Source: Vicinamibacterales bacterium
GTDB taxonomy: Bacteria > Acidobacteriota > Vicinamibacteria > Vicinamibacterales > JAMQPK01
Direction of reading: 5' to 3'
Length of the DNA: 64,000 bases
Assembly (NCBI GenBank): GCA_963762055.1
Contig: CAVXJF010000012.1
Span: 47,695-111,694 of the forward strand
Below are positions 28,589 through 32,730 of the stretch, one piece after another (position 1 is the first letter of the stretch; each line of letters begins with the position of its first letter). The position numbers and the translations under genes are program-made. The notes under the pieces are model-generated. The model saw only the letters and a list, made by a program, of their open reading frames with translations, made no database searches and had not been told where the DNA came from.

Positions 28589-29624
28589 ATGCAGATTCGT
28601 GACGTCACCATCGTGGGGGCGGGGCCGGCGGGTTTGGCGGCGGGCATCGCGGCGAAAAAAGCCGGGCTGGACTATTCCATCGTCGAAAAAGGCGTCCTCG
28701 TCAATTCCATCTACAAGTTTCCCGTCAACATGGTGTTCTTCACGACACCAGAGCTCCTCGAGATCGGCGGGCTGCCGCTCGTCTCTCCCTTCGAAAAGCC
28801 GACGAGGCTCGAAGCGCTTCGCTATTACCGCCGCGTCGTCGACACCTACGAGCTGCCAATCGACTTCGGCGAGCAGATCGTCGACGTGAAGCCCGCCTCC
28901 GCGCGCGCCCGCCCGAACGAGGCAGGCGAGCAGGACGTTTTCGAGATCGAGACGCGGACGGATAAAGGTGTGCGGCGGATCCGGCACAGCCGGAACGTCA
29001 TCTTCGCCATCGGCTACTTCGATCACCCGAATTACATCGGCGTGCCTGGAGAGAAGCTGCCGCACGTGTCGCACTACTACAACGAGTCGCACGGGTTCTA
29101 CCGGAAGAACGTGGTCATCGTCGGCGGCGGCAACTCGGCGGCGGAGACGGCGCTCGAGCTGTTCCGTTCGGGGTCGCACGTCACGCTGGTGCATCGCCAT
29201 CCGCAGTTGAAGCCGAGCATCAAATATTGGGTGCGGCCCGACATCGAAAACCGCATCAAGGAAGGCTCCGTCACGTGGCCTCCTCAACACGACGGTCGTC
29301 GAGATTCTTCCGTCGAGCGTCGTCGTCGAGCGTGACGGCGCGAAGGAGGAGATCCCGGCCGACGCGGTCTTCCTGCTCACCGGATATCATCCCGACTGCG
29401 ACTTGTACCGGCGCGCCGGCATCCGGCTCAACCGCGAGACGATGGCGCCCGAGTTCAACCGGGATACGTTCGAGACGAACGTCCCCGGGATTTTTCTCGC
29501 GGGCGGCGCGATTTGCGGCCGGGATACCTCCAATATCTTCATCGAAAACGGGCGGTTCCATGGCGAAGCGATCATCAGCGTGCTCGCCGGACGGCTTGGA
29601 AAGCAGTACGCCGGAACCCGCTGA
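28589..29624 (+). CDS. ypdA: YpdA-family putative bacillithiol disulfide reductase (one frameshift near 29278)
   Basis: IVGAGPAG, EKGVLVNSIYKFPVNMVFF, GYFDHPN, GGGNSA, IKYWVRPDIENRIKEG, FIENGRFH. Confidence 0.88.
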
Positions 29625-29630
29625 CGCCGC

Positions 29631-30263
29631 ATGAGCCAGAGCACAACGCGGACCGTACACATCCGCCCGCCGTCGGTGCGCGCCGAAACGCTCAACGTAC
29701 TGAAAGCGGCGGCAGCCATCGCGGTGGTCGTAGCCGCATACGTGTTCCGGCCGTCATTCGGCGGACCGCCGGGGGCCACGCAGGAATTGCCGGCCGGACT
29801 TCTGCCGTATCAGCAGCTCATACGCGACGCGCCGGCAGCCGATCAGCGCATTTTCAGAGAATTGCAGGAGGGGCTGCTCGAAGCCGAGCGCATCCGCGCC
29901 CAGACGGGGCACTGGCCCGACGTCACGACGCTGGCGGCCGAAGGCATTCCGCCGTTTGCGGCGGACCCAACGCAGAAGGTCGAATACAAGTGGACATCGG
30001 TGCGTCAGGACTGGGCGACCAATTATCTGGGCGTGCCTTCGGACACCTCGAAGCCGGCCTGGGTGCTCGTCATACTCGAACCCGAACCGGGCGCGCCGGC
30101 CGATCCGGCGCCCAACGATGAGACCCATCATCGGCTGCCCGACGGAACGACGCTGCACGTGTCTGCGTGGAGCATCCCGGAAGACAAGCGCCGCAGCAGC
30201 TTCGCCGCGTTGAGGCTGCCGCAGAATGAAGGCTGGACGAACTGGCTGGTGGGAGGGCAGTGA
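29631..30263 (+). CDS. Membrane-anchored hypothetical protein (DUF6162/FpvK-like by recollection)
   Basis: IRP..VRAETLNVL, one TM, FRELQEGLLE, WPDVTTLAAEGIPPFA; directly upstream of a metal ABC operon. Confidence 0.6.
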   Translation: MSQSTTRTVHIRPPSVRAETLNVLKAAAAIAVVVAAYVFRPSFGGPPGATQELPAGLLPYQQLIRDAPAADQRIFRELQEGLLEAERIRAQTGHWPDVTTLAAEGIPPFAADPTQKVEYKWTSVRQDWATNYLGVPSDTSKPAWVLVILEPEPGAPADPAPNDETHHRLPDGTTLHVSAWSIPEDKRRSSFAALRLPQNEGWTNWLVGGQ

Positions 30264-31268
30264 TGGGGATGGGGAAAGTGGAGAAAGTGGAAAGGAAAAA
30301 GTGGAAAGTGGAAAGTAGGTGCGGCTACAAGCGCATCGCGTCGTTCCTTCTTACTTTTTACTTTTTACTTTTCACTTTCCACTTTCAGGCAGTCCGCCCA
30401 GCCTGCACCCCTCAAGATCGGCGTCACGCTCCACCCGTATTACTCATGGACAGCTAACGTCGTCGGCAAGCTGCCGGGGTACGAGGTGCGCGCGCTGCTG
30501 CCGGGTGATATCGACGCGGGTGACTATCAGCCGCGGCCGCAGGACATCAAGCGGCTTGCCGATCTCGACGTCGTCGTCATCAACGGCATCGGACACGACG
30601 ACTTCATCCTGCCGATGCTGAAGGCGTCGGGCAACACGCGAGCGACGATCCTCCGCGTCAACACGGAGACGCCGACGATTCGCGCCGAACGCGGCAATGG
30701 CGTCAACTCCCACACGTTCATCTCCTTTTCGAACGCCATCCAGCAGACCTACGCGATTCAGCGCGCCCTCGCCAGGCTCCGGCCGCAGGATGCCGCCGCG
30801 CTCCAACAGAACGCGGCCGACTATGCTCGGCGGCTCCGGGTCATCAAGGCCAACGCCGCATCGCGGCTCGCCGACGCGCGAGTCACGCGCGTCGTGACGG
30901 TTCACGACGGGTATGGATATCTGCTCCAGGAGTTCGGACTGGAGGTGGCGGGCGTTGTTCAGCCCTCGCACGGCCTGACGCCGTCAGCGGGCGAATTGCG
31001 CGACATGGTGGCCCTGCTCAAACGCGAGAAGATCGCCGTTGTGTTCAGCGAGGCCACATTTCCCGAGCCGCTGTTGAAAGTGCTGCGCGATGAGGCCGGC
31101 GTGACGGTGTACCTCATCAGCCACGTTGCCTCAGGTCCCTTCACCGCCGACAAATTCGAACGGGAGATGCAGCAAAACGCCGAGACCATGATCCGCGCGC
31201 TGGTCACCCTAGCAGGAGACCAGGAGAGTCAGGAGGAATTTTTTTGGAACAACCCAAGTAACTCCTAG
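30263..31268 (+). CDS. Metal ABC transporter substrate-binding protein, ZnuA/FpvC-like (start needs a frameshift)
   Basis: LKIGVTLHPYYSW, INGIGHDDF, NSHTFIS, VHDGYGYL, PSHGLTPS, HVASG; main frame open from 30264 with no start codon before the mature domain. Confidence 0.85.
30273..30388. repeat. Inverted pair of heptamer arrays (GAAAGTG)n and (CACTTTT/C)n
   Basis: ggaaagtg/gagaaagtg/gaaag/gaaaaagtg/gaaagtg/gaaagtag, then cttacttttt/acttttt/acttttc/actttcc/actttc. Confidence 0.85.
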
Positions 31269-31283
31269 TCTCCTGATCTCCGT
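31213..31283. repeat. Inverted CAGGAG / CTCCTG octamer arrays at the SBP-ATPase junction
   Basis: caggag at 31213, 31221, 31230; ctcc at 31262, 31270, 31278. Confidence 0.7.
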
Positions 31284-31902
31284 GTTCAAGGATCCGTTGC
31301 TCGAGATTTCGAGGCTGACGCTCGGGCCCGCACGCCAGGCGCTGCTGTCGAACTTCTCACTGACCGTCGAGCGGGGCAGCCTGCATGCGATCGTGGGGCC
31401 GAATGGCGCCGGCAAGACGACGCTGCTCTCCGCGATTCTTGGCCTCGTCCCGTTCGAAGGCGACATCGTCGCGCACTGGTCGGGGCGAGGGCGGATTGCG
31501 TATGTCCCGCAGCACTTCCAGGTCGATGCGACGCTGCCTGTCACCGTGGCCGATTTTCTGGCGCTGACCCGCCAGAGCCGTCCCGTGTGCCTGGGTGTTT
31601 CCGCGGCCGTCCGTTCGCGAGTCTCACGGCTGCTCGAACGGGTTGATTTACGCGGGTTCGAGAGTCGTCTTGTTTCCGCTCTGTCGGGCGGAGAGCTCCG
31701 CCGCGTGCTGCTTGCCAACGCGCTCGATCCACTGCCCGAGCTGCTGATTCTCGACGAGCCGGGCGCGGGGCTGGACGAAGCGTCCGCCCGCTGGCTCGAC
31801 GAAACGCTGATGGCGCTGAAAGGCGAGATGACCGTGTTGATGGTCTCTCACGATTCCGACCAGGTCCGGCGCCTTGCCGATCGCATCACGAACCTGAGCT
31901 AG
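31282..31902 (+). CDS. Metal ABC transporter ATP-binding protein
   Basis: GPNGAGKTT, AYVPQ, LSGGELRR, LILDEP, VSHD. Confidence 0.93.
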   Translation: MFKDPLLEISRLTLGPARQALLSNFSLTVERGSLHAIVGPNGAGKTTLLSAILGLVPFEGDIVAHWSGRGRIAYVPQHFQVDATLPVTVADFLALTRQSRPVCLGVSAAVRSRVSRLLERVDLRGFESRLVSALSGGELRRVLLANALDPLPELLILDEPGAGLDEASARWLDETLMALKGEMTVLMVSHDSDQVRRLADRITNLS

Positions 31903-32730
31903 ATGATCTCCGACCTGTTCGAATATCCGTTTCTCGTGCGCGGGTTCCTGTGCGTGATGCTGCTCGCGCCGCTGCTCGGCGGCCTCAGCCATCTCGTGGT
32001 CGCCAGACGCATGGCGTTTTTTGGCGCCGCGCTCGGACAGGCGGCGATTACGGGCGTCTGCGTTGGCCTCCTGATTGGTGAGCCGCTCAACGCGCCGTAT
32101 GGCGGGATGTTCGGCTTTTCTCTCTTGTCGGCGCTGGCGATGGTCTACGCGAAGCGCCGTTCGAAGCTGCCGAACGACACGCTCATCGGCGTGTTTCTCG
32201 CGCTGACGCTGGGGCTGGGGTTGTGCCTGCTCGTCGCAGTCACACGGCAGTTCAACGTCCATCAGGTCGAAGCGATCCTTTTCGGGAGCCTCCTGACGGT
32301 GACCGACACCGACCTCGTCCTGCTCGTCGTCGCGGCGGCCGGTGTCGCGTTCCTGCTCTTCCGCCATTACAACGACCTGCTGCTCGACAGCCTGAGCCCT
32401 CATCTCGCCACCGCGCGCGGGATCAATTCCGCCTATCTCGAATACGGGTTTGCGATCGTGCTGACGATCGCCATCCTGGTGAGCCTGAAGATCATCGGCG
32501 CGCTGCTCGTGGAAGCGCTCGTCATCGTGCCCGCCGCCGCGGCGCGGAACATGGCCGTCAGCACGCGGTCGTATCTCGCGTGGAGCGTCGCCGTGGCGTT
32601 TGTCGCGGGAGTGGGCGGGCTGATTATTTCGACGCGGCTGCTGGTGCCGACCGGGGGCGCGGTGGTGCTGGCGGCGAGCCTGATCTTTTTCGCGACGCTT
32701 GCCGCGGGCGCGCTGCGCCGCAGTACGTAA
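31903..32730 (+). CDS. Metal ABC transporter permease (ZnuB/ABC-3 family)
   Basis: VVARRMAFFGAALG, DTLIGVF, EAILFGSLL, KIIGALLVEAL.IVPAAAARN. Confidence 0.92.
   Translation: MISDLFEYPFLVRGFLCVMLLAPLLGGLSHLVVARRMAFFGAALGQAAITGVCVGLLIGEPLNAPYGGMFGFSLLSALAMVYAKRRSKLPNDTLIGVFLALTLGLGLCLLVAVTRQFNVHQVEAILFGSLLTVTDTDLVLLVVAAAGVAFLLFRHYNDLLLDSLSPHLATARGINSAYLEYGFAIVLTIAILVSLKIIGALLVEALVIVPAAAARNMAVSTRSYLAWSVAVAFVAGVGGLIISTRLLVPTGGAVVLAASLIFFATLAAGALRRST

Follow-up and report, generated by a model that had tools for sequence, protein, structure and literature searches.

A heptamer-repeat hairpin as the probable signal peptide of a ZnuA-family binding protein in a Vicinamibacterales bacterium

Random sequences reportedly worked as secretion signals for yeast invertase in the experiments of Kaiser and colleagues in 1987, and Ogata and colleagues are said to have described, in 2000, palindromic elements of Rickettsia (RPE) that sit in frame within genes for proteins. 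In the opa genes of Neisseria a CTCTT pentamer encodes the hydrophobic part of the leader, and the base count from start codon to mature protein sets the reading frame (PMC3960869; bioRxiv 10.1101/2020.09.16.300947). Intergenic arrays of heptameric units have been described as GGGAATC in Xanthomonas, GGGGA(C/T)T in Nostoc and heptanucleotides in Calothrix (PMC4692102), and TAACTGA heptamer arrays are known from Beggiatoaceae (PMC4679880). A literature search on heptanucleotide repeats in Acidobacteria found nothing. Here we describe a heptamer-repeat hairpin in a 64,000-nucleotide (nt) stretch of DNA, the window, from a Vicinamibacterales bacterium (contig CAVXJF010000012.1 of assembly GCA_963762055.1; 5.17 Mb, 63% GC, 17 contigs; labelled G000). 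The hairpin lies at the junction of a DUF6162 gene and a gene for a ZnuA/TroA-family binding protein, and its arrays, judged from sequence, probably serve as a Sec-like signal peptide of that protein. The features concerned are as follows.

29631..30263, + strand: DUF6162 gene, 210 amino acids, from the open reading frame (ORF) list (Pfam PF19659, E = 6.8e-11)
30252..30256, + strand: Shine-Dalgarno-like GGAGG, 6 nt 5' of the ATG at 30263, read from the sequence
30263..30265, + strand: ATG, probable true start of the binding-protein precursor, one base out of the mature frame as assembled
30273..30317, + strand: purine arm of GGAAAGT-type heptamers, coding for a K/E/R/W/G-rich n-region
30318..30343, + strand: hairpin spacer or loop, in which TAG (30316-30318) is followed directly by GTG (30319)
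30344..30388, + strand: pyrimidine arm of ACTTTTT and ACTTTCC heptamers, coding for a hydrophobic h-region and stop-free in all three frames
30389..30392, + strand: GCAG, likeliest site of a one-base discrepancy, 4 nt where related alleles carry one codon
30393..31268, + strand: c-region SAQ, then the mature ZnuA/TroA-family periplasmic solute-binding protein (Pfam PF01297)

The interval is laid out as purine arm, spacer and pyrimidine arm, an imperfect hairpin at 30273-30386. The mature domain begins at about 30402. Everything from the DUF6162 stop codon to that point is taken up by the hairpin, which leaves no room for another signal peptide, and both 7-nt arrays fall between the ATG at 30263 and the mature domain. 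The DUF6162 stop (TGA, 30261-30263) shares one base with this ATG (GTGATGG), an overlap also present in the alleles L117, L118 and L119 and the more distant relatives G012, G013, G015 and L069, all introduced below. The GGAGG at 30252-30256 is a putative ribosome-binding site, kept as GGGAGGG or AGGAGG in L117, L118 and L119. Because the ATG overlaps the stop and has GGAGG 6 nt upstream, translation of the ZnuA-family protein would probably begin at 30263 and be coupled to the DUF6162 stop. In the resulting precursor the n-region, positively charged, would come from the purine arm, the hydrophobic h-region from the spacer together with the pyrimidine arm, and the signal-peptidase c-region from SAQ (30393-30401), with a predicted mature N-terminus after cleavage of ...A/QPAPLKIGVTLHPYYSW (here and below a slash marks the cleavage site).

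Tandem Repeats Finder resolves three period-7 arrays in the element: 6.0 copies of GGAAAGT (30273-30316; 76% matches), 4.6 copies of CTTTTTA (30347-30378) and 2.9 copies of ACTTTCC (30367-30386). Identical consecutive units number at most 2-3 in the purine and pyrimidine arrays. The arms proper, 30283-30317 and 30352-30386, are 35 nt each, 83% complementary and separated by 34 nt, and the RNA fold of the element (-62.1 kcal/mol, z = -5.6) was equalled in stability by 0 of 200 shuffles. The unit motif GGAAAGTGGAAAGT, allowing up to two mismatches, occurs five times in the window against 0.22 expected, each time within the hairpin. Comparison with Rfam at a permissive threshold gave only sub-threshold matches to plant microRNA precursors, hairpins of a generic kind.

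Translated in its three frames, the pyrimidine arm gives FLLTFYFLLFTFHFQ, SFLLFTFYFSLSTFR and PSYFLLFTFHFPLS; the purine arm gives MGMGKVEKVERKKWKVES, WGWGKWRKWKGKSGKWKV and, with a stop at its end, GDGESGESGKEKVESGK. A first-pass annotation, made from the sequence alone, had reported the heptamer arrays, their frame readings, the missing start and the stop at 30261, and every one of these details was recovered. It had also described the pyrimidine arm as hydrophobic whichever frame is read, which is so for all three, and the purine arm as K-rich; two of the three purine-arm frames are open and K/E/W/G-rich. Stop codons cannot occur in a near-pure pyrimidine tract, which in any frame codes mainly for F, L, S, T, Y, H and P; a GGAAAGT-type purine tract codes for K, E, G, W, V and S. 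A shift of frame thus alters the peptide and not its character.

As assembled, the mature frame is open from 30264, reading ...SRRSFLLFTFYFSLSTFRQSAQPAPLKIGVTL, and between 30264 and 30486 it contains no ATG, GTG or TTG before the GTG at 30486, where gene callers place the start of the binding protein (P0005). The frame of the ATG at 30263 parallels the in-frame ORF of L118 codon for codon as far as CAC TTT CAG (30380-30388). The protein itself can be identified: its PF01297 match (E = 2e-44, 152.5 bits against a cut-off of 29) lies above the gathering threshold, the adjoining genes for an ATPase and an ABC-3 permease fit a ZnuA/TroA assignment, and the product name given to relatives at JGI is 'zinc transport system substrate-binding protein'.

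The DUF6162-ZnuA junction was gathered from 16 same-genus genomes and 80 further genomes; the relatives are Vicinamibacterales, most of them MFD metagenome-assembled genomes (MAGs). Outgroup leaders are ordinary, of the MTRL...ASA/Q type (e.g. MTRLRASIVATLASIAVLAPGAVASA/QTPATLKIG), and are free of 7-nt periodicity. In the early-branching clade members G012, G013, G015 and L069, an ACTTTCY array codes for the h-region, and the overlap with the DUF6162 stop provides a start codon in frame with array and mature protein. Their leaders read as follows.

L069, start ATG: MRNNTCKTSSSYFLLSTFSFLLSFCFLPASASA/QS
G013, start GTG: LGNVKLETGNWRVRRQVFFTYFLVFSFPFFVIPLAMA/QP
G015, start ATG: MRDKWKLESGNWKVSWKVLVTYFLVFSFQFLVVPIALA/QQ
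G012, start ATG: MDNRRKVKVEVTSFLLFTFYFLLSPSPAPS/QP

Within these leaders the array-coded h-regions are SFLLFTFYFLLS (G012), VTYFLVFSFQFLVV (G015) and YFLLSTFSFLLSFCFL (L069). In-frame n-region counterparts of the purine arm are MEKMDRKKLEVKSR in L118, MGKVEREKLKGKSG in L119 and MRDKWKLESGNWKVSWK in G015. A different heptamer hairpin, GAATCTA/TAGATTC, is in frame from an ATG in L038, and G009 has an in-frame CCTTTTT array at the junction; some other clade members carry GC-rich palindromic elements followed by a conventional-looking leader. An in-frame start is present in L118, L119, L117, L121, G012, G013, G015, L069, L038 and G009. When the N-termini of orthologues were compared, array-coded leaders were found to retain the 7-nt periodicity in their DNA. 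Neither outcome that would have told against the first-pass annotation, an ordinary start with a signal peptide that bypasses the array or the same peptide in orthologues lacking the periodicity, was thus observed.

A hairpin of this kind might instead be non-coding, terminator-like or regulatory, with the protein starting at, for example, GTG 30486 or being non-functional. Most of the roughly 200 array loci in the genome are indeed intergenic or 5' of start codons, some hairpins of the family have GC-rich cores like those of bidirectional terminators, and gene callers do use GTG 30486. A start at 30486 would, however, drop any export signal together with LKIGVTLHPYYSW, the N-terminal strand of the mature domain, which is kept in about 80 orthologues; and a promoter and terminator scan of the hairpin locus found no pattern. 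Across the 16 hairpins of the GNAAAGT/ACTTTNC family in the genome, moreover, a given frame is open in only about 15% of frame-by-hairpin combinations, so that the in-frame condition of at least eight relatives is not due to chance. We consider the non-coding reading barely credible.

Among L036, L038, L034 and L037, where the DNA of the gene diverges by less than 3%, three junction architectures occur, and G011, whose mature protein is 99% identical to that of the window, lacks the GGAAAGT hairpin entirely. Because close relatives differ in architecture in this way, the junction is a hot spot of repeat turnover at which the resident sequence is read as the leader. A hairpin is present in most alleles examined, with z from -2.5 to -9.1, and is dispensable for the coding role, since it is missing in L069.

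Two further observations concern these junctions. The arms co-vary between species, GGAAAGT/ACTTTCC in the window corresponding to GGAAACT/AGTTTCC in G015 (the same as L023), and the G015 hairpin is nearly perfect (z = -9.1) despite being coding, which suggests either mutual homogenisation of the arms or selection on the hairpin. In many species of the genus (L011-L015 and L019-L021) the junction before the binding-protein gene is occupied instead by long GC-rich palindromic elements, some exceeding 200 nt (for example ...CGCGAGACGCCTTCGGCGCGA...; GACGCAGAG...CTCTGCGTTGAG), which form a separate class of dispersed repeat.

Five further alleles of the hairpin locus (L117-L121) were found by protein search and contig look-ups. 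In L118 (a k141_ contig, in MEGAHIT style) and L119 (a Logan contig) the frame opening at the same CAGTGATGG junction as in the window stays in phase with the mature protein through both arms, with leaders MEKMDRKKLEVKSRCGDKLIASILLPFSFFLFPFHFQSSAQTAQPAPLKIG and MGKVEREKLKGKSGVESSDTRSRLRRSFLLFTLSFLLFVSPFDLVGSAQAAKSAAPLKIG respectively. L121 is in frame from a TTG within the purine arm. L117, a long-read contig 99.2% identical to the window outside its two hairpins (the second is described below), is in frame from the spacer GTG, with TAG directly 5' (MRLQAHRVVPPYFLLSTFYFPPFKRSAQPAPLKIG); in L120 an in-frame start is absent, as in the window. The coding frames of L118 and L121 contain counterparts of the spacer peptide SRCGYKRIAS, namely SRCGDKLIAS and SRCGYKRIAW respectively. 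The frames in which the pyrimidine arm is read differ among alleles (LIASILLPFSFFLFPFHF, RRSFLLFTLSFLLFV, VVPPYFLLSTFYFPPF, IAWFVHFSLFTFTFHF), and this supports an indel-tolerant leader. The first-pass annotation had proposed both that the repeat arms act as n- and h-regions and that they tolerate indels. The comparison supports both proposals: orthologues and near-identical alleles translate the arrays as n- and h-region, and close alleles enter the mature domain through different pyrimidine-arm frames and from different start codons. A separate contig, contig_17510, was considered as another version of the window's contig and set aside as another strain, its coordinates and hairpin sequence being different.

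The L117 allele raises the question of which start codon is used. Were the true start the spacer GTG at 30319, the purine arm would be a short coupled leader ORF or 5' untranslated region, the signal peptide would consist of spacer and pyrimidine arm only, and G000 would be short of one base near 30381 (CCAC instead of CCACC). The close overall identity of L117, in frame from just this codon, speaks for such an arrangement. An SD-like motif (Shine-Dalgarno) at a suitable distance is nevertheless absent before the GTG, in contrast to the GGAGG 6 nt 5' of the ATG. The leader of L117 is weakly hydrophobic (Kyte-Doolittle 1.19), and K-R at -4/-3 makes a poor signal-peptidase site. L118, L121 and the ATG frame of G000 read the spacer in another frame, as SRCG(Y/D)K, and L117, as a long-read contig, may itself carry errors. 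We therefore think it unlikely that the GTG is the true start, and prefer the ATG at 30263.

Array-derived leaders have the composition expected of a Sec-type (signal peptidase I) signal, in which a basic n-region precedes a hydrophobic stretch of about 10-15 residues; the net charge of their n-regions is +3 to +8. It is in its in-frame start that the window, as assembled, falls short. Maximum Kyte-Doolittle values over 12 residues are 1.9-2.7 for the in-frame array-derived relatives, compared with 2.4-2.7 for outgroup leaders, and 1.5 for the mature-frame leader of G000. The latter has the cleavage context R-Q-S-A/Q, with Q at -3; the alleles offer A-S-A/Q (L120), S-S-A/Q (L118) and G-S-A/Q (L119), and in orthologues the context is mostly A-x-A/Q.

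The mature frame of G000 also contains S-R-R-S-F-L-L, which the first-pass annotation had noted as resembling a twin-arginine (Tat) motif and which could mark a Tat rather than a Sec leader. The motif is there (SRRSFLLFTFYFSLSTF, with the basic residue R behind it in the c-region), comparable stretches are RLRRSFLLF, in frame, in L119 and RVRRQVFF in G013, and TatC is encoded in the genome. It is not, however, conserved among orthologues: a conserved S/T-R-R-x-F-L-K before the h-region was not found, G000 having SRRSFLL and L119 RLRRSFLL, and the RR pair is absent from L118, G015, L069, L038 and most outgroup orthologues, which are Sec-type with A-x-A/Q. In the window the pair arises from CGTCGT of the spacer in one frame only. 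ZnuA-family proteins are generally Sec substrates, and export through Tat seems very improbable here, Sec remaining the preferred route.

The remaining difficulty is that the ATG and the mature frame do not agree. All alleles share a mature frame that begins TCC GCC CAG (SAQ) at 30393, and at the equivalent of 30389-30392, where the window has GCAG, L120 has GCG, giving FQASA/QPAPLKIG. The simplest reading is a single surplus base, probably within 30389-30392. Three different one-base changes, making the window L118-like, L117-like or L119-like, would each restore a plausible leader. The first-pass annotation had named a plain sequencing indel as an alternative explanation of the missing start. 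On the comparison with L118 and L120 and the error-rich nature of the G000 assembly, we rate such an artefact the likeliest cause, and hold it to be probable.

The quality of the assembly was judged from an alignment of two G000 contigs, C12 and C15, with G011 (about 92% DNA identity), covering 134.5 kb of well-conserved sequence with flanks at least 90% identical. It revealed 59 isolated 1-nt indels, of which at least 14 break ORFs of G000 and at least 21 break ORFs of G011, most of them outside homopolymers; both MAGs appear to contain roughly 1-2 indel errors per 10 kb. One instance lies close at hand, in the neighbouring, conserved pyridine-nucleotide oxidoreductase gene (Pyr_redox_3) at 28589-29624: at 29273 G000 alone carries an additional A, lacking in L117, L120 and G011, which shifts the frame of the gene. 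This A is probably an assembly error, because synonymous differences downstream show the gene to be under constraint. MFD assemblies are Nanopore-only and received one round of Medaka polishing (PMC12313526); the closest relatives of the window genome are such assemblies, and we infer that it is one itself.

Several points weigh against an assembly error downstream of the ATG. L117, the closest allele, shares the surplus base at 30391, suggesting inheritance rather than error. Two of the four long-read alleles of the species group (G000 and L120) are without an in-frame start, a proportion above what the average error rate would give for 130 nt unless the repeats are error-enriched. The use of the spacer GTG by L117 means that the start in this lineage may be other than ATG 30263. 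The locus is, finally, hypervariable: between the hairpins of G000 and L117 there are differences at about 27 of 125 positions, three indel events among them, compared with about 0.8% elsewhere.

The shared base, the two start-less alleles and the hypervariability also lend support to a real frameshift, with the gene off either as the OFF state of an Opa-like phase switch or as a recent pseudogene. As in opa, the unit length (7) does not divide by 3 and the arrays separate the start codon from the mature domain; at other loci G000 and G011 have arrays of unequal unit number, with a difference of -14 nt at C15:28996, for example. Against it, the arrays are short and imperfect by the standard of classical contingency tracts, such as the 7-28 copies of CTCTT in opa, with no long near-perfect tract. 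The indels between alleles are of 1, 3 and 5 nt, none a multiple of 7. The six contigs with MEGAHIT-style or Logan names are all in frame, the assembly carries many 1-nt indels, and the mature gene, about 99.5% identical to that of L117, is free of decay. A genuine frameshift is thus a tentative second choice, much less probable than an artefact, and the small share of probability left after these two falls to an L117-like architecture with a different one-base defect.

A stronger proposal would see in the hairpin a working leader cassette that tolerates indels and may be phase-variable. Both arms would be signal-like in any frame and in either orientation, and small indels or changes in unit number would toggle the zinc-uptake binding protein between ATG-, GTG- or TTG-initiated leaders and OFF, the start-less G000 and L120 being genuine OFF variants in soil populations. 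We think this unlikely; phase variation, which the first-pass annotation had raised as a possibility, is unsupported, the arrays being short and imperfect. An assembly indel in a gene read from ATG 30263 remains our preferred account of the window.

The hairpin is one copy of a genome-wide heptamer-array family, at this site probably absorbed into coding sequence. Allowing one mismatch, GGAAAGTGGAAAGT occurs 98 times in the genome against 3 for a reversed control, and a period-7 scan found 201 array loci with many unit families (GGAAAGT/AAAAAGT/TAGAAAG, GGGGATT, AAGGGGT, CTACTGG, GACGATG, GGAACCC and AGAGAGC). Placed against a simple ORF set based on GC content at third codon positions, 81 loci are intergenic, 66 are at ORF 5' ends, 28 at 3' ends and 26 internal. 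Nearly all of the 66 lie 5' of the true start codon, and when they were checked for other array-coded N-termini the binding protein was the sole clear case in G000. In all 16 GNAAAGT/ACTTTNC hairpins the purine arm is 5', the opposite order never occurring; they have only the unit motif in common, spacers and arm lengths varying at every locus.

Other members of the family have features of their own. Several hairpins enclose a GC-rich stem (e.g. C13:69721-69818, C3:168433-168531 and C15:449041-449176) and so look like bidirectional intrinsic terminators in which the A and U tracts are extended. Many arrays (C4:74517, C15:449049 and C17:428920 among them) end a few nt from a start codon, and the gene concerned often has an ordinary signal peptide; purine arrays may supply or mask ribosome-binding sequence.

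Downstream of the binding-protein gene the locus continues with a second hairpin and two further genes of the same transporter.

31213..31281, + strand: second heptamer hairpin, with CAGGAGA and TCTCCTG arms, between the binding-protein and ATPase genes
31282..31902, + strand: ATP-binding cassette (ABC) ATPase gene (Pfam PF00005)
31903..32730, + strand: ABC-3 permease gene (Pfam PF00950)

The second hairpin places repeated SD-like AGGAG motifs directly before the GTG start of the ATPase gene at 31282, and similar hairpins occupy the same junction in G011, G005, G010 and G002. An extra C at 31207 abolishes the conserved stop of the binding protein (after ..MIRALVK), so that the ORF extends 20 codons into this hairpin. 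The base is absent from L117 and G011 but common to L120 and L121, so that it may be real rather than an error of G000.

That repeat arrays were recruited as a signal peptide, were long retained in that role and were rapidly replaced from species to species is well supported. An intergenic simple-sequence repeat of selfish appearance would here have been taken up as the export signal of an essential-type transporter protein, then kept for long in some lineages and swapped in others, which illustrates how loose the sequence requirements of signal peptides are. Base composition alone, purine in one arm and pyrimidine in the other, readies such DNA to encode a leader in any frame; if the leader-cassette proposal were true, purine-to-pyrimidine array hairpins would be ready-made material for new signal peptides. 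There is also a practical consequence. Because gene callers truncate the binding-protein gene to a signal-less version from GTG 30486, heptamer arrays in Nanopore-only MAGs are sites where annotation and assembly errors combine.

Among known systems, the yeast invertase experiments help to explain how a repeat-derived peptide with a charged start and a hydrophobic run can serve as a signal, the difference being that they used an experimental library, whereas here genomic repeats have been recruited naturally. RPE are likewise dispersed palindromic repeats tolerated within an ORF and translated. They are, however, discrete, about 100-150 bp long and share a family consensus, and they add surface loops to mature proteins; the present element is a variable array hairpin in a cleavable signal, translated in frame in relatives and without an element consensus. 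PARCELs, palindromic amphipathic repeat coding elements (PMC2996958), are also palindromic repeat DNA that gives a similar type of peptide from either strand, as the purine-then-pyrimidine hairpin here reads 'charged then hydrophobic' on both strands; in Mollicutes and other microbes, however, they form extended repeat domains inside genes for surface proteins, and are neither 7-nt arrays nor signal peptides.

The genome-wide family itself has the properties of dispersed heptameric simple sequence repeats (SSR) or short tandemly repeated repetitive (STRR) sequences, with many 7-nt arrays, several unit families and a mostly non-coding location. Like the arrays of Xanthomonas, Nostoc, Calothrix and Beggiatoaceae, they consist of dispersed 7-nt units, mostly intergenic near gene ends, that vary among close relatives. 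Those arrays are described as non-coding, whereas one is coding here; the phylum (Acidobacteriota) and the set of units also differ, as does the fixed purine-to-pyrimidine polarity of the GNAAAGT/ACTTTNC hairpins (16 of 16). In function, the closest analogue is the CTCTT pentamer of opa, likewise a pyrimidine-rich tandem repeat, with a unit length that is no multiple of 3, in the region coding for the signal peptide. The present element differs in its 7-nt unit, its short imperfect tracts, its complementary purine arm coding for the n-region and its membership of a genome-wide intergenic family; the protein it precedes has a housekeeping role, binding metal for uptake in a soil bacterium. Should the ON/OFF reading prove true, Opa-style translational switching would extend to free-living soil Acidobacteriota and to metal uptake.

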